Shown: positions 3,142 through 60,348, counted from the stretch's first letter. The stretch is 64,000 bases of DNA from Bacteroidota bacterium (GCA_017303975.1 JAFLBG010000001.1:91988-155987), one strand, 5' to 3'. Program-made: numbers and translations. The notes: generated by a model not told the origin, from the sequence alone.

Positions 3142-3149
3142 GTTGTATT

Positions 3150-7128: not shown

Positions 7129-9333
7129 CTACCTTAATAAGCTAACACAACCCATAACAGTTTTACTTTTATTTGTGAGTGCGTTGTTAAAATCTATTTT
7201 ATATATGTAAGTATCAATCTGACATAATCTGTTGTTGTAATACCCGTTCCAACCATCAGTGGTGTTGGTTGTTTCAAATACTTTATTTCCCCACCTATCA
7301 AAAATTCTGAATATATAGTTATTTACAACGCCAGAAATTTTCGGTGCAAATACTTCATTTTGCCCATTGTTATTAGGGGTAAAGGCGTTGGGTACGTATA
7401 ATACATAGTCTGAATCAACTTCTATTGTTACATCTGATGTGTCCGAGCAGATGGAGTCGGTCATTACAATTTGGCGAGCTCTATAAATACCGGCTTCTGT
7501 ATAACTGTGTTTTTCTGATAGAAAATCACACACATTGATAGATGTCCCATCCCCAAAATCTAAAAGACAATTTGTTCCATTTGAGCTTAGATCTGTAAAT
7601 GTTATATCTGGCTCTACCATGTTTGTAAATAATGGTGTGGCGGTAACACTTGCTGTTGGCATTTTAAAAACAGTTATTAAACTGTCCAATTTAAAATCAA
7701 ATACTTTGTTGCACCCAAAATTATTTGTGGCTAATATTTGTAAGCTAGCATTGTAAATCCCCGGAACATATGTATGTGCTACGGATGAAAGTTGAGAAGA
7801 GTCTCCATCTCCGAAATTCCAATGGTAGTTTAGTATGTTGCCGGAAGCATTTGTGGTGTCAACAAAATTGACGGTAAAAGGAGCGCACCCTTTTAATTTT
7901 TTCATTTTGAAATCCGCTGTTGCCATTGGATTTATTGTAACTGTTTTTGTCAGCACCTTTGTACAACCATTTTCCGATAAGGTAACTTTTACAATTTTGT
8001 TACCAGTTGAAGAATAGCTCACGCCACCAGGAGAATCAGCGGTAGAGCTTGCCGGTGTGGCAGATGTTCCAAAATTCCAACTATAATCTGTTGTGGGTGC
8101 ACCTTGCACAGGACCCGCAATTGAAAACCCAAAGCTATTTCCTGTTAAGCATTGTGGGGCGGGAGCGGTAAGTGTTGGGGAGAATAAAGGATATACTTTG
8201 AATGTTTTTTTTGTAGTTACCGAGCAAGAATCAAATTGGTCTCCGGTTAATGTAACGGTGTATGTACCTGGGTTGTTGTATGTATAGGATGGGTTTACGA
8301 AGTGAGATGTGTCGTTAGTTAAATTTACATCTCCAAAATCCCAGTGGTATTTAGTAATATTTGTACTCGTGCTAAAAAAATTAATTGTTAATCCCGAGCA
8401 AAATGTTTGTTGAGCCTGAATGCTAATAACTTTAGTAGGAGCACAGCTTACAACATTGAACTGAAAATCACGTTTGTTGATGCACAGTAAATTACCATTA
8501 CGGTATTCTTTTACGCAAACAGCAATAACATATTGCCCAGTATTATTTGGGGTACCAGCAATTAATCCTGTTTGGGGGTTAATTGAAAATGCAGATGATG
8601 CACCAAATGGTTTGATAGCAGAATATCCGCCTACATAGCTAACACTACTATAGGGTGGATTAAATGGGGGCTGTGGCATAGGGGTATAAGAATTGGCACC
8701 ATCAAACGGATTGCAGAGTTCATATGCCAGCGAATCTCCATCTGGATCGGTTGCTTCATGATCAAAAGAAAAAGGTTTTCCGGCACATAAATATATAGGC
8801 GGAAAGCTATTGTAATATGCACTACTATTTATTCCTAATGATGTATCTGGTATTGTAATTTGATATGTTGCACCAGTGCTGCCAGGACTAGAAAGATTAG
8901 AAATGGTGTTATTGCGACAACATCTTTGATACACAATGTTGTAACCGCCTGCAATTGGAGGAAGGTTAATTGTTGCTGTATAAATAGCCTCTTCTACGCA
9001 AACATTAGATGTTGACTTTACGCAAGGGTAGTTTAATACCGAAGGCACATTTATTGAATTGAATTGGTATGGTATAAGTATAGAATCAACCAGTGTGTTC
9101 GATGAATTAAATATTCCTATTGCAGCTAGTGTATCGTAGGGGGCTTGCCCATTTATACAATCCCTATACAACTTAAGTGTAATCAAGTAATTATTATTTC
9201 CTTGGGAGGTGTAATAAATCTCACCACCAACAATGTGTGTGGCTTTACTTTCAAACATAAGTAATAGAAAGAATACAAATGCAAGTATTGTTTTTAATGC
9301 TTTCATGGGTTTTGGGTGGTTAAGTTGTAGCAA
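7129..9333 (-). CDS. T9SS type-B C-terminal sorting domain protein with PKD-like domains
   Basis: Signal peptide MKALKTILAFVFFLLLMF. Several W.FGDG motifs. C-terminus 'FTPNNNGQNEVF...IFDRWGNKVFETT...WNG...YIYK...GCVSLLR' (TIGR04131-like). Confidence 0.85.
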   Translation of the reverse strand: MLQLNHPKPMKALKTILAFVFFLLLMFESKATHIVGGEIYYTSQGNNNYLITLKLYRDCINGQAPYDTLAAIGIFNSSNTLVDSILIPYQFNSINVPSVLNYPCVKSTSNVCVEEAIYTATINLPPIAGGYNIVYQRCCRNNTISNLSSPGSTGATYQITIPDTSLGINSSAYYNSFPPIYLCAGKPFSFDHEATDPDGDSLAYELCNPFDGANSYTPMPQPPFNPPYSSVSYVGGYSAIKPFGASSAFSINPQTGLIAGTPNNTGQYVIAVCVKEYRNGNLLCINKRDFQFNVVSCAPTKVISIQAQQTFCSGLTINFFSTSTNITKYHWDFGDVNLTNDTSHFVNPSYTYNNPGTYTVTLTGDQFDSCSVTTKKTFKVYPLFSPTLTAPAPQCLTGNSFGFSIAGPVQGAPTTDYSWNFGTSATPASSTADSPGGVSYSSTGNKIVKVTLSENGCTKVLTKTVTINPMATADFKMKKLKGCAPFTVNFVDTTNASGNILNYHWNFGDGDSSQLSSVAHTYVPGIYNASLQILATNNFGCNKVFDFKLDSLITVFKMPTASVTATPLFTNMVEPDITFTDLSSNGTNCLLDFGDGTSINVCDFLSEKHSYTEAGIYRARQIVMTDSICSDTSDVTIEVDSDYVLYVPNAFTPNNNGQNEVFAPKISGVVNNYIFRIFDRWGNKVFETTNTTDGWNGYYNNRLCQIDTYIYKIDFNNALTNKSKTVMGCVSLLR

Positions 9334-10035: not shown

Positions 10036-11448
10036 TTATTCTATTATTATTCTAGTCGAGTATTCGTTTATGGTAGCGTTGTATAGTCCTTGTGTCCAAT
10101 TTCGAGTATCAATTGTTTCTCTTTCTCCTGAAATTATTTTTTCCATAACAACCTTACCTAACATGTTCGTAATTTTTATAATGGTAGGACGGTTTTTGCT
10201 TTTAGTTTTTTGTTCTATTGTAATGAAATCTGCAGAAGGGTTTGGATAGATTGAAAAGTACTCTGTGAAATTTTTTAATAGGCTTGTGTTTGTTGAGTTG
10301 TACGTTAGAATCTTTATACCTGTCCAATTAGAAGAAAAGGGAATTCCTAGCGTGCATATGTAGGATAGAAATATTTTATTTTGATGAATACTTACCCCCC
10401 ATGTACCAATTGAGTTTAAACTACCCCCATAAAAGTTACAAGAATCGGGTTGTGATGGGTTGGTAACATCAATGATTAGTAAATCAGACTTGCCGGTTGA
10501 TAGATATGTTAAATTCAAAGTTGTATCAAGTGCAATTTCATTGGCATGTACAGGGCTAGTAAACCAGTTGTTGGTTGGGCAGTTATAGGGATTCCACCAG
10601 CCCACTAACTTCATCTGCGAAGTGTCTGCAATGCTTATAACCTCCATTCCACAATAATCTACAGCTAAATAAGCAAGTGTATCTTTTAATACAATATTGT
10701 TGTATGCTCTTGGCAAGTTAAGTGGGACATATAATGCCGGATTGCAAAATCGTCCGGTTTCTTTTGGGGAAAATTTGTTGACACAGTTAATTACCCTGAG
10801 TCCACCTGCATCATAACACAAATATACGATATCGTTTTTTACTTCCATTCCTCGGGCGTTATATAACCCAGGGTTGGGTGAAGAGACAGGATAATGGATT
10901 GTGGGTATAAATTGAGAAACAAAGGAAATGTTTGATGGGTTTGAAACATCTAAAATTAATAGTCCATTTGTCATTGCTCCCAAGTAAGCATAGTTACCTT
11001 CTACTTTAATAACTCCGGTTCCTCCTTTATTTGTATGCTTCCATGAATCGGTAACTATTGGAGTTGTAGGGTTTGTAACATCAATGATAGCCATTCCGGA
11101 ATATTGATTGTTGCTAAAATGATTGCCTGTAGCTAAGTATATATAATTACCTTTTTGTGTCAAGTGCATTACATCAAGTGTGTCAATTTGTTTTGTGAGA
11201 ACCGAAGCAATTAATGACGGAGTGGAAATGGTAGATATGTCGTAAATAGTTAGCCCACCTTCTTTATTTGCAACATACAAATAAGGTCTGTTTTGAACAT
11301 CATGAATCATGGTCATAACCATTGTTGAGCATACCGATGGTATATCCGCTTGGTGCTGTATCCCAAGTTGATTGCAGGTTTGCGAATAATTAAACAGGCT
11401 AATTGTTAAAAAAACAAATAAGATGATTTTATTGTCTTTTCGAATCAT
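10036..11448 (-). CDS. LVIVD-repeat beta-propeller protein with T9SS type-A C-terminal sorting domain
   Basis: Repeated '...YxYLAxG..GLxIxDVSNPxxP' LVIVD-like blades. C-terminus 'IYPNPSADFITIE...ITNMLGKVV...GLY' is TIGR04183-like. The ORF extends to 11487, but the signal peptide (MIRKDNKIILFVFLTISLF) begins at the Met at 11448. Confidence 0.7.
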   Translation of the reverse strand: MIRKDNKIILFVFLTISLFNYSQTCNQLGIQHQADIPSVCSTMVMTMIHDVQNRPYLYVANKEGGLTIYDISTISTPSLIASVLTKQIDTLDVMHLTQKGNYIYLATGNHFSNNQYSGMAIIDVTNPTTPIVTDSWKHTNKGGTGVIKVEGNYAYLGAMTNGLLILDVSNPSNISFVSQFIPTIHYPVSSPNPGLYNARGMEVKNDIVYLCYDAGGLRVINCVNKFSPKETGRFCNPALYVPLNLPRAYNNIVLKDTLAYLAVDYCGMEVISIADTSQMKLVGWWNPYNCPTNNWFTSPVHANEIALDTTLNLTYLSTGKSDLLIIDVTNPSQPDSCNFYGGSLNSIGTWGVSIHQNKIFLSYICTLGIPFSSNWTGIKILTYNSTNTSLLKNFTEYFSIYPNPSADFITIEQKTKSKNRPTIIKITNMLGKVVMEKIISGERETIDTRNWTQGLYNATINEYSTRIIIE

Positions 11449-11962
11449 GGTGTAATTGATTAAACTCATTTGATTTCCCTTTTGCAATCGAAAGTGTTTT
11501 CCAGTTTTCGTCAGTAATCATTTTTGCAAGAAAAGTAATTTGTCCTACGTGGTACGCGTAGTGAGCAATTTGACGGTTAATAGCTTCGTACACTTTATGT
11601 GGTTCGTTTCGAATAAAAATTATTTTTTCTAAATCATTTTCGTTTAGGCTTGTAAGCGTTGCAAATAGAACGCTCCAACCTTTTTGCCAAAACAATAGTA
11701 ATTCCTCTTTGTTGTGAGTATCAATTTCAAATTCTGTATCTCTGTTGCGCCATTCCTTTTCTCCATCCGTGGTTAAAAAATCGGTCCAACGCGATAGCAT
11801 ATTACCCGCCATGTGTTTCATGATAATGGCAATGCTATTGCTGTTTTTGTTTGGTAACCAAAATATTTTTTCGGTTTCAGAGATTTGTGCCAATGCTTTA
11901 TCAGCAAGTTGTTGGTAGGTTTTAAAAACTGAAATGCTATTTAATAAATATCCTTTTTCCAT
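11429..11962 (-). CDS. DinB_2/DUF1572 family protein
   Basis: 177 aa. 'HMAGNMLSRWTDFLTTDGEK...HYAYHVGQITFL' is typical of the DinB-like four-helix metal-binding family. Confidence 0.65.
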   Translation of the reverse strand: MEKGYLLNSISVFKTYQQLADKALAQISETEKIFWLPNKNSNSIAIIMKHMAGNMLSRWTDFLTTDGEKEWRNRDTEFEIDTHNKEELLLFWQKGWSVLFATLTSLNENDLEKIIFIRNEPHKVYEAINRQIAHYAYHVGQITFLAKMITDENWKTLSIAKGKSNEFNQLHHDSKRQ

Positions 11963-12030
11963 TTATTATAGAGTTTGTCATTCTGAACAATAGTGAAGAA
12001 TCTTTTTTTGTTTAGCATGTAGCAAAAATG

Positions 12031-13275
12031 CTACATCTCTTTTTCCCATTTCGCTACCACAACAGTTGCAAGGCAGTTGCCCAATACATTTACTGCAGTG
12101 CGTCCCATATCCATTAAACCGTCAATTCCTAGAATAATTAAAATTGGTTCTGGCGGTAAATGAAAGGAAGCAACTGTTGCAGATAGAATTACTAAAGATG
12201 CACGCGGAACACCGGCTACGCCTTTGCTGGTGAGCATCAGTGTAAGCACCATTATTATTTGTTGCGATAAGCTTAAATCAACTCCTGCTGCTTGTGCCAC
12301 AAATACCGAAGCAAGAGAAAGGTAAAGAGTTGTTCCATCTAAGTTAAAGCTATATCCGGTGGGCAATACAAAGGCAACAATTTTTCGAGGCACACCAAAT
12401 TTTTCTAAGTTTTCCATGGCAGATGGCAAAGCCGATTCGGAGCTTGCCGTAGCAAATGCAAGCATAATAGGTTCTTCTATGGCTTGTATAAATTTTTTGA
12501 TGGGAACTTTTACTAAGAGAGCAATGGGCAAGAGTATGAGTAAAACAAACGCAACTAATGCACCATAGAGAGTAAGTAGCAATTGTATCAAATTTTCAAA
12601 AACCCCCAATCCATACTTTCCTACCGTATAGGCAATAGCCCCAAAAACGGCTAAGGGAGCCAAGTACATAACCAAATGAGTAAATTTGAACATTACTTCC
12701 GAAATACTTTCTATCACGGTTAGTAATGGCTTTTTCTTTTCATCCTTTACCATTGCCATTCCAACACCAAATAATATACTAAATACTACTATTTGTAATA
12801 CCTGCCCTTCTGCGATAGATTTAGCAATGTTTTCGGGGAATATATGTAAAATTATATCGTGTGCAGATTGAGCTTTTCCAACTAAATTTTCAGGTAGTGT
12901 TGCATCGGGCGGAATAGGTGCACCAACTCCCGCTTTGGTAATATTAATAGCTGCAAGTCCAATGATAAGAGCAAATGTGGTTACTATTTCAAAATATATA
13001 ATTGATTTGATTCCAATTCTACCTACTTGTTTCAAATTAGAATGCCCCGCAATTCCCACAACCAGTGTACTAAAAAGAAGAGGAGCTATAATTGTTTTGA
13101 TTAGTTTTAGAAAAATGTCGCTAATTATTTTCAGCTCTTGCGCTATTGTTGGGAAATCGTACCCAAACAAAATTCCCATGATTAGAAATGCAAAAGTAAA
13201 TGTGGTGAGGTTTCTTTTTTTGTAAAGTAGAAATAGGATCCCTGCAAAAACAAATAAATGTATGAATACTAGCAT
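12031..13275 (-). CDS. Dicarboxylate/amino acid:cation (Na+/H+) symporter, DAACS family
   Basis: 414 aa polytopic protein. 'GVPRASLVILSATVASFHLP' and 'LDMGRTAVNVLGNCLATVVVAKWE' match GltP/DctA-type transporters. Confidence 0.85.
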   Translation of the reverse strand: MLVFIHLFVFAGILFLLYKKRNLTTFTFAFLIMGILFGYDFPTIAQELKIISDIFLKLIKTIIAPLLFSTLVVGIAGHSNLKQVGRIGIKSIIYFEIVTTFALIIGLAAINITKAGVGAPIPPDATLPENLVGKAQSAHDIILHIFPENIAKSIAEGQVLQIVVFSILFGVGMAMVKDEKKKPLLTVIESISEVMFKFTHLVMYLAPLAVFGAIAYTVGKYGLGVFENLIQLLLTLYGALVAFVLLILLPIALLVKVPIKKFIQAIEEPIMLAFATASSESALPSAMENLEKFGVPRKIVAFVLPTGYSFNLDGTTLYLSLASVFVAQAAGVDLSLSQQIIMVLTLMLTSKGVAGVPRASLVILSATVASFHLPPEPILIILGIDGLMDMGRTAVNVLGNCLATVVVAKWEKEM

Positions 13276-13635
13276 TCATAAAAATAGCGAAAGAAAATTA
13301 AACCGTAATTAGACAGTAGAAGCTTTTGAAAAAAGCGCACTATCTGTCTTAGTACGGGTAACCCCAACTTAGTATTAGTAAGGTTTCCTTACTTATTCAA
13401 ACCCCTAAAAGCCTTACTAATATTTAGTTGTAGGCAGTTGTATTTCCTAGCTGTCTATTTAGGGTTAAATCAGTTGTATTAAAGTAAGACGGCATGTTTG
13501 GTTAATTATTTCTAAGTAGTCAAAATCACGAAAATGCTTTAGAATACAGATTTATGCAACGGTTTTTATTCCCTAGTTTTAAATACCCAATAGTTTCTAA
13601 TATATTTAACAAATCAAACATTCATATACTTAGTA

Positions 13636-23898: not shown

Positions 23899-23931
23899 TT
23901 TTGGTGGAATACCTATTTTTAGGTATTTTTG
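23899..23931 (+). promoter_or_regulatory. Candidate Bacteroidetes-type promoter of the suf operon (TTG at -33, TAnnTTTG at -7) with a palindrome in the spacer
   Basis: TTG at 23901-23903. TATTTTTG at 23924-23931, which matches the Bacteroidetes sigma-A -7 consensus TAnnTTTG. 20-nt spacer. The palindrome AATACCT-attttt-AGGTATT (23908-23927) lies between the two elements, about 30 nt upstream of the sufA start. Confidence 0.4.
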
Positions 23932-23960: not shown

Positions 23961-24287
23961 ATGATAACAGTATCAGATAATGCCAAGCAACAGGCACTTC
24001 ATTTAATGAAGCAAGACAATAAGCCCGAAGGTGCTTTTATTCGTGTTGGTGTAGAGGGTGGAGGCTGCTCCGGATTGAGTTATAAGCTTGAATTTGACAC
24101 CGAACTAAAAGAGGGGGATCAACAGTTTGAAGATAAGGGAATAAAAATAGTGGTGGACAAAAAAAGCTTTTTATACTTGGTTGGAACAGAGCTTGATTTT
24201 TCGGGTGGACTAAACGGAAAAGGATTTGTATTTAATAATCCTAATGCATCGAGAACTTGTGGGTGTGGGGAATCGTTTGCAGTATAA
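23961..24287 (+). CDS. sufA: Fe-S cluster insertion protein, HesB/IscA/SufA family
   Basis: 'FIRVGVEGGGCSGLSY...' with the C-terminal 'CGCGESF' motif. The internal Met at 23961 was chosen as start because the upstream extension covers the promoter palindrome. Confidence 0.85.
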   Translation: MITVSDNAKQQALHLMKQDNKPEGAFIRVGVEGGGCSGLSYKLEFDTELKEGDQQFEDKGIKIVVDKKSFLYLVGTELDFSGGLNGKGFVFNNPNASRTCGCGESFAV

Positions 24288-24296
24288 AATAGTTTT

Positions 24297-24776
24297 TTAG
24301 TTCGTTAGTTCACCAGTTTTTAGTAAAAAATGGCAACAATAGATAGGTTTGAAGATTTAATAGCTTGGCAAAAAGCTAAAAAATTGGCACTGGGTGTATA
24401 TACTCTTACAAATGTTGGGATTTTTTCTAAAGACTTTGGATTGCGAGATCAAGTGAGGCGATCTTCTATTTCTGTTGTATCTAATATTGCAGAGGGTTTT
24501 GAACGCAAAGGGAACAGAGAGTTTTTACAATTCTTATATATTTCGTTGGGGTCTTTAGGCGAGTTAAAAACTCAAATTGAAATTGCTTTTGAACTCAACT
24601 ATTTTTCAGAAAACGAATACAAAAATATTTTACCCCAAATAACAGAAGTGAGAAAAATTATAAATGGTTTAATTTCTAGTTTAAAGGATAGTGATTTTAA
24701 GGGAATAAAATTTAAGTATTCATAGTACTCGTAAACTGAAATACTAACAAACTGGCAAACTTGAATACTAGTAAAC
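24297..24776 (+). mobile_element. IR-bounded four-helix-bundle cassette 1 (imperfect ~20-bp inverted repeats)
   Basis: Left arm TTAGTTCGTTAGTTCACCAGTTTTTAGTA (24297-24325). Right arm TACTAACAAACTGGCAAACTTGAATACTAG (24747-24776). The reverse complement of the left arm aligns with the right arm at about 17 of 20 positions (tactaa-aaactgg-..aact). Confidence 0.35.
24330..24725 (+). CDS. Four helix bundle protein (TIGR02436 / PF05635 23S rRNA-intervening-sequence protein family), copy 1
   Basis: 'FEDLIAWQKAKKL...VYTLT...FGLRDQVRRSSISVVSNIAEGFERKGNREFLQFLYISLGSLGELKTQIEIAFEL' matches the family consensus. Confidence 0.85.
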   Translation: MATIDRFEDLIAWQKAKKLALGVYTLTNVGIFSKDFGLRDQVRRSSISVVSNIAEGFERKGNREFLQFLYISLGSLGELKTQIEIAFELNYFSENEYKNILPQITEVRKIINGLISSLKDSDFKGIKFKYS

Positions 24777-24786
24777 AAAAAAACTG

Positions 24787-26238
24787 ATGAACACAACTAT
24801 AGAAGAACACATCTCCTCCGATTATAAATACGGCTGGAGCACAGATATAGAAATGGACAATGCCCCAAAAGGCTTGAGTGAGGATATTGTGCGATTTATT
24901 TCCAAGAAAAAAAACGAACCGGAGTGGTTATTGGAATATAGGTTAAAAGCCTACAAACATTGGCTTACATTAGAAGAGCCACGGTATTGGCCACATTTGA
25001 ATTATCCTAAAATAGATTTTCAAAACATTATATATTACGCGGCACCTAAGCCACAAAAAAAATTAAACAGTCTAGACGAAGTTGATCCGGAACTTTTAAA
25101 AACCTTCGAAAAGCTTGGTATATCGCTCGAAGAACAAAAACGTATTTCTGGTGTAGAATCTAAAATTGCTGTAGATGCAGTAATTGATAGTGTTTCGGTA
25201 AAAACTACATTTAAAGAAACGTTAGCAGAGAAAGGAATTATTTTCTGCTCCTTCAGTGAGGCTGTGCACGAGCACCCGGAATTGATTAAACAATACATGG
25301 GCACTGTAGTGCCTTATACAGATAATTATTATGCAGCATTAAACTCTGCTGTTTTTAGCGATGGCTCGTTTTGTTATATACCAAAAGGAGTTCGTTGCCC
25401 AATGGAACTATCAACTTACTTTAGAATTAACTCAGCCGGTACCGGCCAATTTGAAAGGACGTTGTTAGTTGCCGATGAAGGTGCTTACGTTAGCTACTTG
25501 GAAGGCTGCACTGCTCCTATGCGCGATGAAAATCAGTTGCACGCTGCGGTGGTAGAAATTGTAGCTCATAAAAATGGAGAAGTAAAATACAGCACCGTTC
25601 AAAACTGGTACCCGGGCGACAAAGAGGGCAAGGGTGGTATTTACAATTTTGTAACCAAGCGTGGAATTTGTTTAGGAGATAATTCTAAAATTTCTTGGAC
25701 ACAAGTTGAAACCGGCTCTGCCATTACTTGGAAATACCCAAGTGTAATTTTAAAAGGAAATAATTCGGTTGGTGAGTTTTATTCGGTGGCTGTTACAAAC
25801 AACTACCAGCAAGCAGATACAGGCACCAAGATGATTCACTTAGGAAAAAACACTCGCAGCACCATTATATCAAAAGGAATTTCCGCAGGCTTTAGTAATA
25901 ATAGTTATAGAGGATTAGTGCGTGTAGCAAAAGGTGCCACCAATGCACGAAATTTTTCTCAATGTGATTCCTTGCTAATGGGCGACAAATGCGGAGCACA
26001 CACATTTCCGTACATTGAAATAAAAGATAAATCAGGCATAGTAGAGCACGAAGCTACTACTTCAAAAATTGGAGAAGATCAATTGTTTTATTGCAAACAA
26101 CGTGGAATTGACACAGAGAAAGCCATAGGACTTATTGTAAACGGCTATTGCAAAGAAGTTTTTAATCAGTTGCCTATGGAATTTGCGGTGGAAGCACAGA
26201 AATTATTAGCGGTTTCACTAGAAGGGTCTGTGGGATAA
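24787..26238 (+). CDS. sufB: Fe-S cluster assembly protein SufB
   Basis: 483 aa with SufB-characteristic blocks throughout. Confidence 0.95.
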
Positions 26239-26246
26239 AAAGTTAT

Positions 26247-26728
26247 AAAGTTTAAAGTTGGAAAGTTTGAAATCAAATAATATTAATGGCAACAATAGAA
26301 CGATTTGAGGATTTAAAAGTTTGGCAAAAAGCACGACAGCTGAACAAAGAAATATATAAAGTATCTAATACGGGTGCTTTTTCAAAAGATTTTGGATTAC
26401 GCGATCAAATAAGACGTTCAAGTATTTCTATCGTATCTAATATTGCTGAGGGTTATGAAAGAAATGGTACTAAAGAATTCAACCAGTTTTTATCAATAGC
26501 AAAGGCTTCTGCGGCAGAATTAAGAGCGCAGCTTTATGTTTCCTTTGATTTAGAATATATTTCTGAACAAGAATTTAATACCCTAATCTCTATTGTTCTT
26601 GAGGTTAGCAAAATGCTTTCCGGATTAATGAGTTATTTACAAACAACCGAAATAAAAGGGAATAAATTTAAAGAAAGTGCTGAATTGTATGGTACGAATC
26701 AACTTTAAACTTTCCAACTTTAAACTTT
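26247..26728 (+). mobile_element. IR-bounded four-helix-bundle cassette 2 (perfect 22-bp inverted repeats)
   Basis: AAAGTTTAAAGTTGGAAAGTTT at 26247-26268 is the exact reverse complement of AAACTTTCCAACTTTAAACTTT at 26707-26728. The arms enclose the whole 4HB gene. The right arm starts within the stop codon and abuts the sufC start. Confidence 0.5.
26286..26708 (+). CDS. Four helix bundle protein (TIGR02436 / PF05635 family), copy 2
   Basis: 'FEDLKVWQKARQL...IYKVS...FGLRDQIRRSSISIVSNIAEGYERNGTKEFNQFLSIAKASAAELRAQLYVSFDL'. Confidence 0.85.
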   Translation: MATIERFEDLKVWQKARQLNKEIYKVSNTGAFSKDFGLRDQIRRSSISIVSNIAEGYERNGTKEFNQFLSIAKASAAELRAQLYVSFDLEYISEQEFNTLISIVLEVSKMLSGLMSYLQTTEIKGNKFKESAELYGTNQL

Positions 26729-26733
26729 AAACT

Positions 26734-27480
26734 ATGTTGACTATAAAAAACCTACACGCAGGAATCGAAGACAAAGAAATTCTAAAAGGATTTTCATTAA
26801 ATGTTAAACCTGGAGAAGTTCATGCAATCATGGGTCCTAATGGATCGGGAAAAAGTACATTGGCTAGTGTGCTTGCAGGACGCGAAGATTATACCGTTAC
26901 CGATGGAGAAGTAACTTTTAAAAACAAGAACTTATTGGAGTTATCTCCTGAAGATAGAGCAAGAGAAGGCGTGTTTCTTGCATTTCAATATCCAATAGAG
27001 ATTCCTGGTGTAAGCAATATCAATTTTTTAAAGACGGCCATTAACGAAATTCGTGCGTACAAAGGCATGGAAGCAATGGAAGCAAAAGACTTTTTAAAAT
27101 TGGTAAAGGAAAAGCAAGCCATGGTGGAGTTACAAGGCACGCTGGCAAACCGCAGTGTTAACGAAGGTTTTAGCGGGGGAGAGAAAAAACGAAACGAAAT
27201 TTTTCAAATGGCCATGCTGGAGCCAAGCTTAGCTATACTTGATGAAACTGACTCCGGACTTGACATTGACGCTTTGCGTATTGTAGCCAGCGGTGTAAAT
27301 AAATTACGCAACAAAGACAGATCGTTTATTGTTATTACGCACTACCAACGTTTACTAGATTATATAGTTCCTGACTTTGTGCATGTAATGTATCAAGGAA
27401 AAATTGTAAAATCAGGTGGAAAAGAATTAGCGCTAGAGCTGGAGAAAAACGGATACGATTGGGTGAAGGAGTTAGTTTAA
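26734..27480 (+). CDS. sufC: Fe-S cluster assembly ATPase SufC
   Basis: Walker A 'GPNGSGKST', ABC signature 'FSGGEKKR', Walker B 'LAILDETDSGLD'. Confidence 0.95.
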   Translation: MLTIKNLHAGIEDKEILKGFSLNVKPGEVHAIMGPNGSGKSTLASVLAGREDYTVTDGEVTFKNKNLLELSPEDRAREGVFLAFQYPIEIPGVSNINFLKTAINEIRAYKGMEAMEAKDFLKLVKEKQAMVELQGTLANRSVNEGFSGGEKKRNEIFQMAMLEPSLAILDETDSGLDIDALRIVASGVNKLRNKDRSFIVITHYQRLLDYIVPDFVHVMYQGKIVKSGGKELALELEKNGYDWVKELV

Positions 27481-27663
27481 AGTTAGAAAGTCAAATTCTC
27501 CCCTTGAGAGCTTGTCCGCCTCTGGCGGAGGAGATATAGAGGGGTGTGTAGGGGAAATTGTGCGGTTTTAAATGTTTAATAGATTAACAACTTAATATCA
27601 CAAATTGTGACATGAAGTTGAATTACTAACAACAAAGAACTTTGAACAAAGAATTAATTTATA
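27481..27663 (+). repeat. 183-bp sufC-sufD spacer: degenerate IR-bounded element containing a GC-rich REP-like hairpin core
   Basis: Left AAAGTTAGAAAGT (27482-27494) and right AAGAACTTTGAACAAAG (27638-27654) are in inverted orientation and belong to the same AAAGTT heptamer family. The core at 27488-27545 (..CCGCCTCTGGCGG.. GAGGGGTGTGTAGGGGAA) is an inverted, diverged copy of the 70-bp GC-rich repeat at 28984 and 29875. It also holds the palindrome TCACAAATTGTGA (27613-27625). Confidence 0.4.
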
Positions 27664-28983
27664 ATGAACACAACCATAAAAACAAACATACCAACAGCAC
27701 TTTTAAGCTATCTTGAAAGTACCGCTGCAACACACGCCAATCAATCATTTCGAACCCAAGCGCTTGATAGCTTGTTAAACCAAGGGTTGCCTAACAAAAA
27801 AAGTGAAGAATATAAATATTCTCCGGTAGAAAAATTCTTCAAAGAGTTAAACTTTAGTTCAAAAGGAAATTCGCCTAATGCAGACATATTCAAAACCCTT
27901 AATTATCCTAAGCTACGAGGAGTCGAAGTTTTTGCAATTAATGGAATTATTGTGGCGTCTAGTCACACTGAGCCTGTCGAAGTGTCTGGGAGTACTATTA
28001 AAATCCAATCCCTAAAACAAGCGATGTTAGAAAACAATAAAATCGCAGATACATATCTCGGTCAACTTTCTTCCAAAAACCAAGACCCTTTCATTGCCTT
28101 AAACAATGCAGCTTTTGAAGATGGTATATTTATTCATCTGGAAAAGAACGCAATAGTAGAAGAGCCAATTCACATTATCAATTACGTTACCTCCCAAGAA
28201 AACTGTTTAATTCAACCGCATCATTTATTTGTATTTGAAGAAAACTCTCAAACCACAATTATTGAAACTACTATAATTAAAGGTAGTAGCGTTGGCTTTG
28301 TTTATAATAGTTTGGTGGAAATGCAAGCAGCAGAAAATTCTAAAATAAATTATTATCGCTTGCAGCTGGGATCTAAGTCGGATGATACTAAAAAAGCTGC
28401 AGTATTTAACACACAAATAAATCAAGAGAAAAATTCTACCGTAGATACTAATACAATTACCATCAATACTTCTTGGTTACGCAATAATCATAACATTGTT
28501 TTAAATGGTACCAATTGTGAAGCACATTTAAACGGTTTGTTTTTAATAAACAACCATCAGCACGTTGATAATCACACCTTGGTTGACCACCAGCAACCGC
28601 ATTGCCAAAGCAATCAGTTGTACAAAGGAATTTTAAGTGATAAGTCGACCGGAATATTCAATGGAAAAATATTTGTTCGCAAGGATGCACAAAAAACAAA
28701 TGCATATCAATCAAGCAAAAATATTTTGTTGAGTGACGATGCTACAATCAATGCAAAACCACAATTAGAAATTTATGCCGATGATGTAAAGTGTTCGCAC
28801 GGTTCATCAACAGGCAAGATTGACACGGATGCCCTGTTTTACTTACGTGCACGGGGAGTTGGCGAAGAATCCGCCAGAAGGCTCTTATTACATGCTTTTG
28901 CAAATGATGTGATTGAAACTATAAAAAACGAAGAGTTGCAAATGACTATTAAAGAAATTATAGAAAAGCAACTTTATGTATAA
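27664..28983 (+). CDS. sufD: Fe-S cluster assembly protein SufD
   Basis: 439 aa with SufB/SufD-family C-terminal beta-helix motifs ('ILLSDDATINAKPQLEIYADDVKCSHGSSTGKID'). Confidence 0.9.
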   Translation: MNTTIKTNIPTALLSYLESTAATHANQSFRTQALDSLLNQGLPNKKSEEYKYSPVEKFFKELNFSSKGNSPNADIFKTLNYPKLRGVEVFAINGIIVASSHTEPVEVSGSTIKIQSLKQAMLENNKIADTYLGQLSSKNQDPFIALNNAAFEDGIFIHLEKNAIVEEPIHIINYVTSQENCLIQPHHLFVFEENSQTTIIETTIIKGSSVGFVYNSLVEMQAAENSKINYYRLQLGSKSDDTKKAAVFNTQINQEKNSTVDTNTITINTSWLRNNHNIVLNGTNCEAHLNGLFLINNHQHVDNHTLVDHQQPHCQSNQLYKGILSDKSTGIFNGKIFVRKDAQKTNAYQSSKNILLSDDATINAKPQLEIYADDVKCSHGSSTGKIDTDALFYLRARGVGEESARRLLLHAFANDVIETIKNEELQMTIKEIIEKQLYV

Positions 28984-29056
28984 ACACACCCCTAGCCCCT
29001 CTCAAGAGGGGAACCTACGCACACTTCCCTACTTGAGGAGGAATTATGGAGGTGTA
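28984..29056 (+). repeat. GC-rich ~72-bp REP-like repeat, copy A (two GC hairpins)
   Basis: ACACACCCCTAGCCCCTCTCAAGAGGGGAACCTACGCACACTTCCCTACTTGAGGAGG...GGAGGTGTA. It contains hairpins CCCCTCT-ca-AGAGGGG and a TCCCT.C-ttga-GGAGG stem. About 90% identical to copy B at 29875..29946. A 3' half-copy lies at 29476..29506. Confidence 0.7.
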
Positions 29057-29093
29057 CCACAAGAGTGCAATTATATAAACAACAAATTGGATA

Positions 29094-29507
29094 ATGTTTG
29101 ACATCTGGCACATAGCTATTCCTGTAACTAATATAGAAGAATCCATTTCTTTCTATTGCGATTTTCTTGGCTTCATTTTTATTGGAACCGATGAGAATCA
29201 CAACAAAAAGCAAGCTTTTATTAAAACTCCTGGTGGTAATATGTCTATCGAATTATTTATTGAAAGCAACAGCATTAACAAAAAAATGCCCGATCATATT
29301 GCTTTTGAGTGCGATGATATTGAAACCTACATTAATAAATTAAAAAGCAAAAACGCAACTATTCCTACGCACCTTAATTCTTATGATAATGGTGTTCGCT
29401 TTTTTTCCTTGATAGATCCACAGGGTATTCCTTTGCATTTTTTTAAAGGAAGAAAACTTTATGAAGATTCATTAATTCCCTCCTTGAGGAGGGCCAGGGA
29501 GGTGTAA
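29094..29507 (+). CDS. VOC family protein (glyoxalase/bleomycin-resistance/dioxygenase fold)
   Basis: 'WHIAIPVTNIEESISFYCDFLGF' at the N-terminus and 'DHIAFECDDIETYINKL' fit VOC. The C-terminal 'SLRRAREV*' is encoded by the half-repeat. Confidence 0.65.
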   Translation: MFDIWHIAIPVTNIEESISFYCDFLGFIFIGTDENHNKKQAFIKTPGGNMSIELFIESNSINKKMPDHIAFECDDIETYINKLKSKNATIPTHLNSYDNGVRFFSLIDPQGIPLHFFKGRKLYEDSLIPSLRRAREV

Positions 29508-29512
29508 ATAAT

Positions 29513-29947
29513 ATGAAACATAAATTTATTACATATAACCCAAAACTAAAAGAACTCGCTCGTAGGTTGCGCAACAATAGCACAAAGTCTGAGATTAAGC
29601 TATGGAACTATTTAAAAGGCGATAAATTACTAGGGTATGACTTTCACCGACAAAAGCCTATTGGTAATTATATTTGTGATTTCTTTTGTAAAGAATTAAT
29701 GTTGGCTATTGAGGTGGATGGCTATTCACATACACTAGAAGATGTACAAAAAAAAGATATTGAAAAGCAGAAGTATCTTGAAAGTCTAAACATTACTATT
29801 CTTAGATTTACGGATACAGAAATTTTTGAACAGATTGATAACGTTATTAGAAAAATAGAGCATTGGGTGAGAGAACACACCCCTAGCCCCTCTCAAGAGG
29901 TGAACCTACGCACTTCCCTCCTTGAGGAGGGACTAAGGGAGGTGTAA
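29513..29947 (+). CDS. DUF559 endonuclease-domain protein (Vsr-like PD-(D/E)xK family)
   Basis: 'ARRLRNNSTKSEIKLWNYLKGDKLLGYDFHRQKPIGNYICDFFCKELMLAIEVDGYSH' is the DUF559 signature. The C-terminal 24 aa are translated from repeat copy B. Confidence 0.85.
   Translation: MKHKFITYNPKLKELARRLRNNSTKSEIKLWNYLKGDKLLGYDFHRQKPIGNYICDFFCKELMLAIEVDGYSHTLEDVQKKDIEKQKYLESLNITILRFTDTEIFEQIDNVIRKIEHWVREHTPSPSQEVNLRTSLLEEGLREV
29875..29946 (+). repeat. GC-rich ~72-bp REP-like repeat, copy B
   Basis: Direct repeat of 28984..29056 at about 90% identity. With copy A it brackets the VOC + DUF559 pair. Confidence 0.7.
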
Positions 29948-29968
29948 AATTAAATTAATACTAAAGAG

Positions 29969-31186
29969 TTGTACAACATAACTAACATAAGCGACCAATT
30001 CCCAATACTTTCAGAGAAGGTAAATGGCAAACCATTGGTTTATTTGGACAATGCCGCCACTGTTCAAAAACCAAAACAAGTTATTGATGCTATTGTAAAT
30101 TACTATACACACACCAACGCAAATATTCACAGAGGTGTTCATACGTTGAGTCAAAAAGCTACAGATGCTTATGAGCAAGCACGAAAAAAAGTAGCTGACT
30201 TTATTGGTGCCTCAACTAACGAAATAGTATTTACGCGTGGTACCACAGAATCAATAAATTTAGTTGCGGAAACCTTCGGAAAAAAATTTATTTCAGCAGG
30301 AGATGAAATTGTAATTACAGAAATGGAGCATCACAGTAATATTTTGCCTTGGCAAAAATTATGTGAAGAAAAAGGGGCAAAATTAATTGTTGCACCAATC
30401 AACAACTCTGGAGAATTGATGCTCAATGAATTTGAAAAATTACTCTCCCTAAAAGCCAAGTTGATTGCAATTACCCATGTATCAAACACATTGGGGACAA
30501 TTAATCCAATAAAAAAAATAATAGAATTAGCTCATTCCAAAAATATATTTGTTCTTATAGATGGTGCACAGGCTGTGCCACACCTAAAAGTAAATGTAAA
30601 AGAGCTTGATGCCGATTTCTATTGCTTTAGTGGACACAAGATGTACGCACCTACGGGAATTGGTGCATTGTATATAAAAGAAAAGTGGTTGGCTCAATTG
30701 CCCACTTATCAGATTGGTGGTGGTGTTATAAAAACGGTTTCGTTTACCAAAACAGAATATATAGATGGACCTTTAAAATACGAAGCTGGTACTCCCAATA
30801 TTGCCGGTGCCATAGGACTTAGTGCAGCTATAGATTTTATGAATGAAATTGGTATTGAAACCATTCAGCATCATGAAGAAAAGTTGCTGCGTTATGCAAC
30901 AGAACAAATAACGCAACTGGAAAAAATAAAAATTATTGGGACAGCGACTGAAAAAGCTGGTGTGCTATCCTTCATTGTGGAAGGAGCACATCCATTCGAT
31001 GTTGGAACACTGTTAGATAAAATGGGTATTGCTGTTCGTACGGGACACCACTGCACACAACCCTTGATGGAAAAATATAAAATTCAAGGTACCGTGCGCG
31101 CTTCCTTTGCTTGTTATAATACCATTGAGGAAATAGATGTATTTTTGGAGGGATTAAAAAAGACGATTAGGATGTTAGTTGGGTAA
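29969..31186 (+). CDS. sufS: Cysteine desulfurase SufS (class V aminotransferase)
   Basis: 'FSGHKMYAPTGIGALY' PLP-lysine region and 'RTGHHCTQPLM' active-site Cys loop. Confidence 0.95.
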   Translation: MYNITNISDQFPILSEKVNGKPLVYLDNAATVQKPKQVIDAIVNYYTHTNANIHRGVHTLSQKATDAYEQARKKVADFIGASTNEIVFTRGTTESINLVAETFGKKFISAGDEIVITEMEHHSNILPWQKLCEEKGAKLIVAPINNSGELMLNEFEKLLSLKAKLIAITHVSNTLGTINPIKKIIELAHSKNIFVLIDGAQAVPHLKVNVKELDADFYCFSGHKMYAPTGIGALYIKEKWLAQLPTYQIGGGVIKTVSFTKTEYIDGPLKYEAGTPNIAGAIGLSAAIDFMNEIGIETIQHHEEKLLRYATEQITQLEKIKIIGTATEKAGVLSFIVEGAHPFDVGTLLDKMGIAVRTGHHCTQPLMEKYKIQGTVRASFACYNTIEEIDVFLEGLKKTIRMLVG

Positions 31187-31198
31187 TAAAAGGTGGGT

Positions 31199-31652
31199 GA
31201 TTGACTAGTCCGATAGTCTGTTAGTCAATTAGTCAGAAAGCTTACAGTAAATGAATTATGGCAACGATACAAAAATTTGAAGATATTGTAGCTTGGCAAA
31301 AGGCGAGGGAATTAAATAAGCGGATTTATTTGCTTACAACCAACTCTGCGATTGCAAAGGATTATGGATTACGCGACCAAATGAGAAGATGTTCAATTTC
31401 TGTGATGTCGAATATTGCAGAAGGATTTGAAAGAACCGGAGATAAAGAGTTTGCAAGATTTTTGAGCATTGCGATGGGATCGTGTGCCGAATTAAAGTCA
31501 CAACTTTATGCAGCACTGGATGTTGGATTTATAACTGAAATGGAATTTAATTCAGTTGTTATTCTCGTTGATGAAACTGGAAAGTTAATACAATCATTCA
31601 GAAAATATTTACGACTAACAGACTAGCGGACTTTTTAACTAACAGACTATAA
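31199..31652 (+). mobile_element. IR-bounded four-helix-bundle cassette 3 (19/20-bp inverted repeats, duplicated arm motif)
   Basis: AGTCCGATAGTCTGTTAGTC (31207-31226) pairs with GACTAACAGACTAGCGGACT (31613-31632), matching at 19 of 20 positions. A second unit, TAACTAACAGACTAT (about 31637-31651), pairs with ATAGTCTGTTAGTCA. The arms bracket the 4HB gene between the sufS stop and the sufE start. Confidence 0.5.
31258..31626 (+). CDS. Four helix bundle protein (TIGR02436 / PF05635 family), copy 3
   Basis: 'FEDIVAWQKARELNKRIYLLT...YGLRDQMRRCSISVMSNIAEGFERTGDKEFARFLSIAMGSCAELKSQLYAALDV'. Confidence 0.85.
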   Translation: MATIQKFEDIVAWQKARELNKRIYLLTTNSAIAKDYGLRDQMRRCSISVMSNIAEGFERTGDKEFARFLSIAMGSCAELKSQLYAALDVGFITEMEFNSVVILVDETGKLIQSFRKYLRLTD

Positions 31653-32084
31653 ATGACAATAAGCGCCATAGAAAAAGAAATTATAGACGAGTTTTCCTTA
31701 TTTGATAATGACTGGGAAAGTAAGTACGAGCACCTTATCGATTTAGGGAAGTCTCTTCCGTTAATTAACGAAAAGTACAAAACAGAAGATAGGCTTATAA
31801 AAGGCTGTCAAAGTCGTGTTTGGCTTCATTCAGAATTGAAAAATGATACTATTGTGTTCACCGCAGACAGTGACGCTATCATAACTAAGGGTATTGTAGC
31901 ACTTTTGATTCGTGTGTTGTCAAACCAAACTTCTGAAAATATTATAAATGCAAAGTTAGACTTTATAGATAAAATTGGATTGAAAGAGCACCTCTCACCT
32001 ACACGAGCCAATGGTTTGGTTAGTATGATAAAACAAATGAAACTGGATGCAATAATCCTAAAACAAAATGAAAATGAAGAATAA
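31653..32084 (+). CDS. sufE: SufE family cysteine desulfuration (sulfur acceptor) protein
   Basis: 'LIKGCQSRVWLHSEL...IFTADSDAIITKGIVALL' carries the conserved Cys of SufE. Confidence 0.85.
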   Translation: MTISAIEKEIIDEFSLFDNDWESKYEHLIDLGKSLPLINEKYKTEDRLIKGCQSRVWLHSELKNDTIVFTADSDAIITKGIVALLIRVLSNQTSENIINAKLDFIDKIGLKEHLSPTRANGLVSMIKQMKLDAIILKQNENEE

Positions 32085-44666: not shown

Positions 44667-46739
44667 TTATCTTATTGTTGAACCGTTTTGTATATCGCTT
44701 TTCTCGGGCGATACAAAACACAGAGATCCATCACTATTCTCCGCCATTAAAATCATGCCTTGCGATTCTATTCCTTTTATTTTGCGAGGTGCAAGGTTTA
44801 TTAGGATGCTTACCTTTTTTCCAATAATTTCCTCTGGTTTGTAGTGCTCTGCAATACCCGATACTACTATACGTTGATCGATACCGGTATCAATTTTTAA
44901 TTTCAACAATTTATCTGCTTTTGGAACTTTTTCTGCCTCTAGAATAGTTCCTACACGAATATCCATTTTGCTAAACTCATCGAAAGTAACTTCCGGCTTT
45001 GCAGCCTCAATCAACTTGGTAGTTGCAGCATTCATTTTTTTTGATTCTTCTAATTTATTTATTTGTGCCTCTACTAATGGGTCTTCTACCTTTTCAAATA
45101 GTAATGCTGCGGGTTGAATAACATGCCCTTCTTTTAGCAAGTCAATAGCTCCAGTGCCACTCCATAAAACACCAGACATATTAAGCATTTTCGATAATTT
45201 ACTCGCTGTAAAAGGCAAGAATGGCTCCATTAACACAGAGAGATTAGCACATGTTTGCAGTGAAATGTGCAATATTGCTTTTACTTTTTCCGGCTCTGTT
45301 GCTTGCAGTTTCCAGGGTTCGGTATCTGCCAAAAATTTATTTCCAATACGCGCCAAATTCATAAGTTCTGTAAGTGCTTCCCGAAATTTAAAGTTCTCTA
45401 TTGCAGTAGCAATTTTTACGGGAACATCTTTTATCTGATCGATAATAGATTTATATTCACTTTCATAACCAGCCATCGAAGGTACTTTCCCGTCATAGTA
45501 TTTATGGGTAAGGACAATAGTTCTGTTTACGAAATTTCCAAGTATAGCAACTAATTCACTGTTGTTTTTTAATTGAAAATCTTTCCATGTAAAATCATTA
45601 TCCTTTGTTTCCGGCATGTTGGAGCATAGGGTGTAACGCAGTACATCTTGCTTGTCTTTAAAATCAAGCAAATATTCATGTAACCAAACAGCCCAATTGC
45701 GAGAGGTGGAGATTTTATCGCCTTCTAAATTCAAAAATTCATTAGCCGGCACATTATCTGCTAACACATACTCTCCATGCGCCATGAGCATAGCAGGAAA
45801 AATAATACAGTGAAAAACAATATTGTCTTTCCCAATAAAATGAACCAATTTAGTTTCCTTATCCTTCCAGTACAGCTCCCAATTGGAAAGTTTATTAGAA
45901 CTTTGAACTTTAAACTTTGAACTTTCAAAGTACTCCTTAGTAGCGGAAATATATCCAATAGGTGCGTCAAACCAAACATACAGCACTTTTCCTTCTGCAT
46001 CTTTTACAGGCACTTTTACACCCCAATCCAAATCACGCGTCATAGCGCGAGGCTGTAACCCTTGATTTAACCACGATTTACACTGCCCATACACATTGGT
46101 TTTCCAGTCTTTGTGAGAATCAATATAGCTTTCAATGTCTGGTTGCATTTTATCTAATGGCAAAAACCAATTTTTTGTTTTTTTCAAAACCGGCTTTTCT
46201 CCACTTAATGTAGAACGCGGGTTTATTAAATCAGTTGGGTTTAAAGAACTGCCGCACTTTTCACACTGATCGCCATAGGCGTTCTCATTACTACATTTGG
46301 GGCAAGTGCCAACAATGTATCTATCTGCCAAAAACTGATTGGCTTTTTCATCAAAGTATTGTTCTGTTACTTCTTCTGTAAATATTTTTTTATCATACAA
46401 ATTTTTAAAAAACTCGGAAGCGGTCTCGTGATGAATCTTTGCAGATGTACGCGAATAGGTGTCGAAAGAAATTCCAAACTCAGCAAAAGCATCCCCCATT
46501 ATCTTGTGGTACTTGTCCACCACTTGCTGCGGAGTTATATCCTCTTTCTTTGCCTTAATGGTAATAGGTACACCATGTTCGTCTGAACCGCAAATAAAAA
46601 GCACGTCTTTACCAATAGCTCGTAAATAACGCACATAAATATCGGCCGGTAAATAGCATCCCGCCAAATGACCAATATGAACCGGTCCATTTGCATAAGG
46701 CAACGCTGCTGTAATTAAATATCGTTTAGGGTTTTGCAT
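44667..46739 (-). CDS. metG: Methionine--tRNA ligase
   Basis: 'HIGH' (PVHIGHLAG), 'KMSKS', Zn-knuckle cysteines and a C-terminal tRNA-binding domain. It also contains an unusual heptamer-repeat insertion (see findings). Confidence 0.95.
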
Positions 46740-60339: not shown

Positions 60340-60348
60340 CAATAGTTT

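Follow-up and report, generated by a model that had tools for sequence, protein, structure and literature searches.

Three intergenic spacers of the suf operon in a 64,000-nucleotide stretch of a Bacteroidota genome (GCA_017303975.1, JAFLBG010000001.1:91988-155987; hereafter, the window) each carry an insert in which a gene for a PF05635/TIGR02436 four-helix-bundle (4HB) protein stands between two inverted arrays of short tandem repeats. The three inserts are best explained as members of a widespread family of cassettes of ~0.42-0.6 kb with a common anatomy, namely 3-6 heptamer-like units with an RGT core, a PF05635 open reading frame (ORF) and a reverse-complement array. The best explanation for these cassettes is in turn that they are the element type of the ORF-bearing intervening sequences (IVSs) of 23S rRNA, living in the spacers of protein operons. 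We put the probability that they are IVS-type cassettes residing in mRNA and acting at the RNA level, as a looped-out insert and RNase III substrate, at roughly 0.55. The evidence presented here consists of the observed anatomy, its generality, its presence and absence in relatives, the co-inheritance of arms and ORF, and the conservation of the arms.

The suf operon and its inserts

All of the suf genes lie on one strand, as the initial annotation of the window had proposed; it is the plus strand, with the order sufA-4HB-sufB-4HB-sufC-sufD-(VOC, DUF559)-sufS-4HB-sufE. The three widened spacers to which it had drawn attention, each with one 4HB gene in the operon orientation, measure 499, 495 and 466 bp. 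The genes, together with a candidate promoter box, are as follows (nt, nucleotides).

23924-23931, plus strand: TATTTTTG, candidate Bacteroidetes-type -7 promoter box, ~30 nt 5' of sufA
23961-24287, plus strand: sufA, Fe-S biosynthesis A-type carrier (PF01521, 73 bits)
24330-24725, plus strand: 4HB-1, PF05635/TIGR02436 four-helix-bundle protein of 131 aa (profile scores)
24787-26238, plus strand: sufB (PF01458, 260 bits)
26286-26708, plus strand: 4HB-2, 140 aa (profile scores; PDB 2gsc match)
26734-27480, plus strand: sufC, ABC ATPase (profile match)
27664-28983, plus strand: sufD (profile match)
29969-31186, plus strand: sufS (PF00266, 499 bits)
31258-31626, plus strand: 4HB-3, 122 aa (profile scores)
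31653-32084, plus strand: sufE (70-73% identity to sufE of relatives)

The remaining two suf junctions are occupied too, sufC/sufD by a probable arm-like relic and sufD/sufS by a 988-bp insert with VOC and DUF559 genes. The operon is a repeated target, with the A/B, B/C, C/D, D/S and S/E junctions all affected.

The TATTTTTG box at 23924-23931 is the sole -7 motif positioned to drive the suf operon; since this motif occurs at chance frequency window-wide, the box is positional evidence only. No Bacteroidetes-type -7 box (TAnnTTTG) was found in the left spacers of the three cassettes, which agrees with the earlier remark that the 4HB genes have no obvious promoter, and no plus-strand terminator-like site was found inside or beside the cassettes. 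Promoters and terminators of their own were rejected on these two grounds. The lone plus-strand terminator-like match in the operon (25725-25744) falls within the sufB coding sequence, and a sigma-70 scan, using a model unsuited to Bacteroidota, stayed at chance level. From the stop-to-start position, the operon orientation and the lack of a promoter or terminator, the cassettes are expected to be transcribed within the suf mRNA. The suf operon of Riemerella RA-YM has a 4HB gene between sufA and sufB, and all three genes respond alike to iron in RNA-seq (PMC5609570). An Rfam scan of the window returned two tRNAs only, with no rRNA family and no other known RNA family.

The four-helix-bundle proteins

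The three ORFs score 121-135 bits against PF05635 (cutoff 33.8) and 116-122 bits against TIGR02436 (cutoff 24), well above both cutoffs, and their earlier assignment as paralogous genes of the IVS-associated family stands. They are intact, with many invariant residues, and the proteins are 48-55% identical to each other in pairwise comparison; no fourth 4HB copy is present in the 64-kb window. Among solved structures, 4HB-2 matches 2gsc, the pentameric four-helix bundle of Xanthomonas XCC0516 (E 2.6e-14), and 2rld (1e-4). Identity with Avd, the accessory protein of diversity-generating retroelements (DGRs), was rejected, as 4HB-1 and 4HB-2 reach 22-27 bits with the Avd equivalog model NF033474 (cutoff 80), 4HB-3 has no match to it, and the neighbours are suf genes. 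A link to defence systems and carriage by phages were likewise discarded: PADLOC gave no match for the 4HB proteins and tblastn found none among 50,697 phage records.

Inverted arms of the window cassettes

The arms of the window cassettes are tandem 7-8-nt units with an RGT core (AAAGTTn, TAGTCnnn, TAGTTnn), with complementary units on the right. Two of the left arms and one right arm are described below with the output of Tandem Repeats Finder (TRF) or its unit counts.

24290-24324, plus strand: cassette 1 left arm, ~four TAGTTnn(n) units, tandem period 8; begins 3 nt past the sufA stop
24733-24777, plus strand: cassette 1 right arm, AAACT-type units; ends 9 nt 5' of the sufB ATG
26239-26272, plus strand: cassette 2 left arm, AAAGTTn x4.4 (TRF, inverted repeat); begins directly after the sufB stop
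26700-26733, plus strand: cassette 2 right arm, AACTTTA x4.6; extends over the 4HB-2 stop as far as the base that precedes the sufC ATG
31206-31236, plus strand: cassette 3 left arm, TAGTCnnn x3.9 (TRF, inverted repeat)
31612-31650, plus strand: cassette 3 right arm, two registers; extends over the 4HB-3 stop, with its end 2 nt 5' of the sufE ATG

In cassette 2 the inverted repeat covers 26 nt at 96% (26246-26271 / 26704-26729) and contains the perfect 22-bp pair noticed initially. Cassette 3 has a repeat of 20 nt at 95% (31207-31226 / 31613-31632) and a second register at 86% (31213-31234 / 31629-31650), matching the 19/20 pair and the duplicated arm motif already described for it. An imperfect pair of ~17/20 had been reported for cassette 1; no clean repeat was recovered there, but an interrupted duplex of 26 pairs was (24291-24326 / 24741-24777). 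The repeats had also been called specific to each cassette, and the arms do differ, but the RGT-core heptamer design is shared and arm similarity tracks 4HB relatedness.

Arm duplex energies were computed on the spacers only and compared with 500 shuffles, none of which was as good in any of the three cases (0/500 each). The duplex of cassette 1 reaches -23.8 kcal/mol (z -5.4), that of cassette 2 -34.9 kcal/mol with 30 pairs (z -10.8) and that of cassette 3 -36.7 kcal/mol with 28 pairs (z -6.7). Folding recovered the long-range stem predicted from the inverted repeats in both the minimum free energy (MFE) and the centroid structures of cassettes 2 and 3, but gave an ambiguous fold for cassette 1. 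The stems of cassettes 2 (26 bp) and 3 (20 bp), with one mismatch each, are within the known size range of RNase III substrates.

Cassette anatomy across the family

Two sets of loci were collected beyond the window. A SufB-seeded scan with one genome per species returned 80 loci, and a 4HB-profile scan of metagenomes gave 80 further loci; 79 cassettes from genomes and metagenomes with flanks of 100 nt or more on both sides made up the survey set. Comparison of the left flank with the reverse-complemented right flank gave a median score of 35, against 15 in the cross-locus and direct-repeat controls, and in the MFE folds the number of left-right pairs had a median of 33, which fell to 17 when the right flanks were swapped (p 1e-6).

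Tandem arrays of at least three units are present in 81% of the left and 80% of the right flanks of these 79 cassettes, while the 95th-percentile array score is zero in shuffled flanks and ORF interiors. The period is 7 in 48/64 left and 50/63 right arrays, and arms hold a median of 4.1 units. RGT is present in 45 of 48 units (e.g. AGTTTCA, AGTCCAA, AGTGATG), compared with ~20% for a random circular 7-mer, under a rotation rule for unit phasing that itself favours RGT. In 32 of 39 cassettes the left unit and the reverse complement of the right unit differ at no more than one position, a level of agreement reached by 15% of random pairs.

The cassettes fit closely between their neighbours. The distance from the upstream stop to the left arm has a median of 1 nt (interquartile range -4.5 to 6.5) and that from the right arm to the downstream ATG a median of 5 nt (2 to 19), which bears out the earlier proposal that a stem would bring the end of the upstream gene beside the start of the downstream one. 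The median element length is 494 bp. Upstream neighbours are co-oriented in 55 of 67 cases (12 opposite) and downstream neighbours in 46 of 61 (15 opposite). Host contexts are diverse and include GH20/DUF5009, RNase J/SDR, a sugar ABC transporter, gpmI/thrC, HlyD/AcrB, ribF, GT4 and BREX-like loci. Further carriers are Flavobacterium johnsoniae and F. columnare (gmk-4HB-nadD). An exclusive link to suf function was rejected, as suf operons account for only 4-5 of the 80 metagenomic 4HB loci and the other contexts are unrelated.

Occupancy of suf junctions in relatives

The nearest loci of the SufB-seeded scan come from Bacteroidota metagenome-assembled genomes (MAGs) whose SufB is 84-88% identical to that of the window. 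Their suf junctions are occupied as follows.

L001, L002 and L006: cassette at B/C only
L003: cassette at S/E only; A/B spacer 20 bp, B/C spacer 45 bp
L004: cassettes at A/B and B/C
L007 and L025: no cassette; B/C spacer 13-14 bp

Occupancy is thus sporadic among L001-L007 and L025, a distribution of the IVS type. The initial annotation had suggested that related suf operons be searched for spacers that are empty or hold just the hairpin, and both were found: empty junctions measure 13-45 bp, and the sufB/sufC junction of L013 carries an ORF-less hairpin of AAAGTTn units (11438-11570, z -3.4). The window, L002 and L006 have orthologous cassettes at B/C (68-80% amino-acid identity), and the one at this junction of L001 belongs to a different 4HB lineage (49%). 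Such a mixture of empty, otherwise filled and hairpin-only junctions fits a cassette that comes and goes. Filled and empty junctions have no alignable shared spacer, so that no target-site duplication could be defined from comparing them.

All 16 of the 16 intact suf-operon cassettes are co-oriented with the operon, which bears on whether the segment could be an inverton, in which a site-specific recombinase flips the 4HB segment and so switches downstream suf expression. Invertons are common in Bacteroidota and are typically flanked by inverted repeats of 20-30 bp, and repeats of that length around segments of a few hundred bp do match the usual signature. An inverton is nevertheless very improbable here, and was rejected on orientation and architecture: most of the cassettes outside suf operons are co-directional too, the arm sequences vary from cassette to cassette, which sites recognised by one invertase would not do, the ORF has stayed intact and conserved, and no recombinase gene is adjacent.

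Some further features of these junctions were recorded. The sufC/sufD junction of L150 holds a PF05635-like gene split into two frames (3135-3383 and 3392-3520, spanning 3135-3520), apparently a decaying copy. In L001, the sufA/sufB spacer carries another repeat, gtcattccgaacgaaagtgaggaatc (5632-5793), and a 93-aa hydrophobic ORF with no Pfam match lies between sufS and sufE (11019-11300).

Co-inheritance of arms and ORF

Arm similarity climbs with 4HB protein identity (Mantel rho 0.36, 0/2000 permutations), and one 4HB clade has GAGTGAT-type arms at no fewer than four (>=4) different sites. Between orthologous B/C cassettes the right arm is identical at 33/34 and 31/34 positions, with sufB 4-fold sites at 35-43%; the 33/34 value is that of cassette 2 against its L002 orthologue, for which the sufB 4-fold sites stand at only 43%. 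Arm identity exceeds that of the adjacent linkers in related pairs (0.61 vs 0.43, p 4e-11), and by a comparable margin in unrelated ones (0.52 vs 0.38), which makes the clade-specific component of the arms a modest one. A strong clade-specific conservation of the arms was accordingly rejected, being weaker than single examples would imply, given that RGT-type units occur in unrelated cassettes too.

These correlations could also be read as a sign that the arrays are cognate sites of the encoded 4HB protein, taken as pentameric with an Avd-like positively charged barrel, so that each cassette is a self-contained RNA/DNA-protein module. The protein would bind its own stem and thereby control its own translation, shield the stem from RNase III or recruit the enzyme to it, or help to propagate the cassette. 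The rise of arm similarity with protein similarity is what this predicts, as are the excess of arm conservation over linkers and over synonymous sites and the integrity of the ORFs with their invariant residues. The ~4 units per arm are near the five subunits of a pentamer, and the homologous Avd pentamer binds a structured RNA element, as seen by cryo-EM (bioRxiv 10.1101/2023.10.23.563531). However, simple linkage predicts an equal correlation, the clade-specific signal is modest given that arms exceed linkers in unrelated cassettes as well, ORF-less hairpins persist with no local protein, and the binding known in this family is that of DGR members. We consider this reading distinctly unlikely.

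A more elaborate form of it, which we regard as unlikely, would make the arrays the specific partners of the pentameric 4HB protein in an autonomous RNA-protein module that inserts at operon stop/start junctions and in rRNA helices. Bound to its own repeat stem, the protein might then gate RNase III cleavage or translational coupling, or might propagate the cassette through an RNA intermediate, much as the related Avd works with a reverse transcriptase.

RNA-level and DNA-level explanations

Under the RNA-level explanation that we favour, the cassette would be transcribed as part of the suf polycistronic mRNA and its two arms would pair in the transcript into an AU-rich stem of 20-30 bp. The stem would loop out the 4HB cistron and bring the upstream stop to within a few nt of the downstream start. 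By juxtaposing the flanking cistrons, the stem would make the insertion tolerable, in the way that an rRNA IVS extends a native helix. Such a stem would be a canonical RNase III substrate, and the enzyme may excise the 4HB segment and split the polycistron.

The pairing of the arms in vivo, the cleavage by RNase III and a benefit for operon expression are what we infer. Several observations weigh against this explanation. The stem of cassette 1 is interrupted and has no run long enough to be an obvious RNase III substrate. Weak stems are frequent in the wider family, where 52% of the cassettes score above the cross-locus control's 95th percentile and about half below it, although this control is inflated because many cassettes share units. 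The orthologous sufB/sufC cassette of L006 keeps an intact 4HB gene with a decayed long-range stem, so that the initial annotation's own counter-example, a relative that retains the 4HB gene with no inverted repeats, exists in part, in this one orthologue only. Together with the cassettes below that percentile, the L006 stem loss indicates that the stem is dispensable. Sense-strand mismatches in the arms are neutral, with 57 G:U against 44 A:C (p 0.23), and this outcome does not tell RNA-level from DNA-level maintenance; the arms could be kept at the DNA level, for example by gene conversion between them or by recombinase recognition. The paralogues of the window are old (48-55% identity), so no recent mobility was caught, and the suf-seeded searches bias the locus sample.

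Some of the same facts would be expected of a mobile element acting at the DNA level, whose heptamer arrays serve as terminal or subterminal repeats for a transposase or recombinase encoded elsewhere. The 4HB gene would then be cargo or an accessory factor, the ORF-less hairpins MITE-like derivatives (MITE, miniature inverted-repeat transposable element), and the RNA stem a by-product. The symmetric mismatch spectrum, the varying occupancy among relatives, the same arms with one 4HB clade at different loci, the existence of ORF-less versions and the decayed stems of some old copies all agree with this, and the conserved RGT core suggests sequence recognition. Against it, the neighbourhoods of the cassettes examined contain no transposase or recombinase, a target-site duplication is not definable, the units vary widely between cassettes outside the RGT core, and the window copies compared include no near-identical pair within the genome. 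The arms are also conserved in orthologous, evidently immobile copies past synonymous saturation, the polarity of ORF-less hairpins is fixed in 9/10, and the placement of the arms against stop and start codons is regular almost to the single nucleotide. We hold a DNA-level element to be somewhat unlikely.

Comparison with known systems

The closest likeness is to the ORF-bearing 23S rRNA IVSs of Coxiella burnetii, Leptospira, Xanthomonas and Brucella, which share the protein family (S23p = PF05635). In the 428-nt IVS of the C. burnetii 23S rRNA, the S23p ORF occupies the loop and inverted repeats form the stem, which RNase III cuts in its middle; the 5' arm of this IVS has three to four tandem heptamers (GACAGAT) just 5' of the ATG, with a copy number that differs among strains (PMC4990558). 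As in the window cassettes, a sense-strand ORF sits in the loop of an inverted-repeat stem, and the tandem-heptamer 5' arm just before the ATG has its counterpart in the window arrays of periods 7-8. Both kinds of element are ~0.43-0.5 kb long, sporadic and looped out of the host transcript, in the cassettes by prediction.

The differences concern the host and the state of the ORF. The cassettes are hosted by a polycistronic mRNA and flanked by suf coding sequences, with no rRNA in the window; their arms abut stop and start codons, whereas those of rRNA IVSs extend rRNA helix 25 or 45. Their ORFs are intact and conserved, in contrast to the decaying and apparently untranslated Coxiella ORF. 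Excision by RNase III is demonstrated for rRNA IVSs and only presumed for the cassettes. The cassettes therefore lack the rRNA residence that defines an IVS and share the rest of the IVS anatomy.

Inverted repeats between or next to genes that are co-transcribed into long mRNA hairpins and bound or cleaved by RNase III are known from Correia elements (CREE/NEMIS) and from MITEs such as ERIC. In Neisseria, Correia elements are RNase III-cut inverted-repeat elements in mRNA that affect the expression of neighbouring genes (PMC2649163). These are non-coding elements of ~100-160 bp, near-identical in hundreds of copies, with terminal inverted repeats and TA target duplications, unlike the cassettes with their conserved ORF, variable heptamer-array arms and old, diverged copies. 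The ORF-bearing cassettes do not fit a MITE/Correia-like class: they are coding, their copies in the 64 kb of this genome are 48-55% identical with different arm units, and no target duplication was definable from filled versus empty junctions. The novelty claimed initially therefore holds in part: RNase III-cut inverted repeats in mRNA have the Correia precedent (PMC2649163), but no description of the 4HB-cassette architecture outside rRNA was found in the full-text literature, with partial coverage of subscription journals, so that an earlier description is possible.

Avd resembles the 4HB proteins in its homologous four-helix-bundle pentamer fold family, resides in a compact element and binds structured RNA; unlike a DGR, the cassettes have no reverse transcriptase and no template or variable repeat nearby. 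The gene cassettes of integrons are likewise promoterless, co-oriented small ORFs with imperfect palindromes (attC). An integron cassette, however, has a single attC palindrome at one end and is stacked with others beside intI, whereas two arms bracket each ORF here and the cassettes are singly scattered in housekeeping operons. An integron reading was rejected on the two bracketing arms and the separation of the cassettes by suf genes.

Heptamer direct repeats of the type TAACTGA occur in intergenic regions of Beggiatoaceae, Cyanobacteria and some Bacteroidetes, immediately 5' of start codons (PMC4679880). Unlike the cassettes, they repeat one heptamer in direct orientation and have neither a complementary partner array nor a linked ORF family. 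A link to them was dismissed, as PMC4679880 does not mention the 4HB family and the repeats lack the partner array. The 'empty' sufB/sufC spacer of L003 (2014-2058) holds four direct ACGAATn heptamers with no complementary partner, an array that resembles these start-proximal repeats (PMC4679880).

ORF-less hairpins and a probable relic

Hairpins with cassette-like arms and no ORF were found as well, two of them in the window.

60343-60421, plus strand: ORF-less hairpin, AAAGTTn / AACTTTn units, z -2.8
27474-27663, plus strand: sufC/sufD spacer, probable relic at 27474-27648; AGTTTAAAGTTAGAAAGT (left-arm-like), a GC-rich hairpin and AACTTTGAAC (right-arm-like)

The first fills the spacer between a citrate synthase gene (stop 60339) and a UbiD-family gene (ATG 60426), with a stop/start geometry like that of the ORF-bearing cassettes. 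It and the L013 hairpin resemble Correia-like elements in being short, non-coding inverted repeats. In all fetched sequence, 35 pairs of inverted arrays lie ~400-500 nt apart and are ORF-bearing, and 13 raw pairs lie <150 nt apart, a few of which are direct-repeat artefacts. In 9/10 ORF-less hairpins whose flanking genes both run in the same direction, the RGT arm is 5' relative to transcription; this fixed polarity is modest evidence in favour of a strand-specific role.

The sufC/sufD spacer, probably an ORF-less relic, folds with z -2.7, and its arm-only duplex is weak (z -1.8). Between its AGTTTAAAGTTAGAAAGT element and the right arm of cassette 2, which have all of sufC between them, complementarity is 94%, so that an alternative pairing could loop out sufC. 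The GC-rich hairpin at 27496-27545 is related, in inverted orientation, to the DUF559-associated repeats described below.

Other inserts and repeats

The insert at sufD/sufS is of a different kind.

28983-29968, plus strand: VOC + DUF559 insert at sufD/sufS
29094-29507, plus strand: VOC/glyoxalase gene
29513-29947, plus strand: DUF559 Vsr-like endonuclease gene

It is bracketed by ~75-nt direct repeats (28983-29060 and 29874-29948; 98% over 40 nt), each composed of two GC-rich hairpins, CCCCTCTCAAGAGGGG and TCCCTCCTTGAGGAGGGA, and a third, partial copy lies at 29473-29508. The VOC and DUF559 proteins both end in a repeat-encoded ...REV. None of the closest relatives carries this insert (sufD/sufS gaps 2-49 bp).

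L019, a Flavobacteriales MAG, has three other suf-operon inserts (7311-7838, 10089-10415 and 11724-12101). The one at sufB/sufC encodes a 175-aa protein with no Pfam match, also present in L023 (11446-11976); the one at sufD/sufS is a divergent PF05635 gene with inverted arms of its own (z -5.6); and the one at sufS/sufE is a gene of the PDDEXK_3 (GxxExxY-type) nuclease fold, in which the spacer to the left of the gene pairs with the tandemly repeated one to its right (z -4.2). From these inserts it appears that other small-ORF families may share the lifestyle of operon residence between inverted repeats.

An in-frame (AAAGTTC/T)x4 array lies within the methionyl-tRNA synthetase gene metG on the minus strand (45898-45925) and encodes a 7-residue insertion (about SKFKVQS) relative to the Pyrococcus enzyme 1rqg. 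For the AAAGTT x3 pattern, 0.66 occurrences would be expected in the window; there are 8, of which 5 are in the arms of cassette 2 and 3 in metG. A separate hairpin at 13365-13430 (22 nt, 86% complementary, 22-nt loop) is not of the heptamer-array type.

Significance

In Bacteroidota, Cyanobacteria and other phyla, PF05635/TIGR02436 genes rank with the most common small genes that lack an explanation. To our knowledge, the rRNA IVS from which the family takes its name has had no known origin or function for more than 30 years. On the evidence given here, the rRNA IVS would be one habitat of a more general element of fixed anatomy that also lives in ordinary operons and has ORF-less derivatives. 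If the arrays and the 4HB protein do form an RNA-protein module, this would provide a first function for a large and enigmatic four-helix-bundle family and would establish intervening elements that reside in operons as a new class. Should the stems be processed, the cassettes would be points at which many Bacteroidota operons, the essential suf operon among them, are cut into separate mRNAs, which would bear on operon annotation, on the interpretation of RNA-seq data and on how selfish insertions are tolerated in transcription units.

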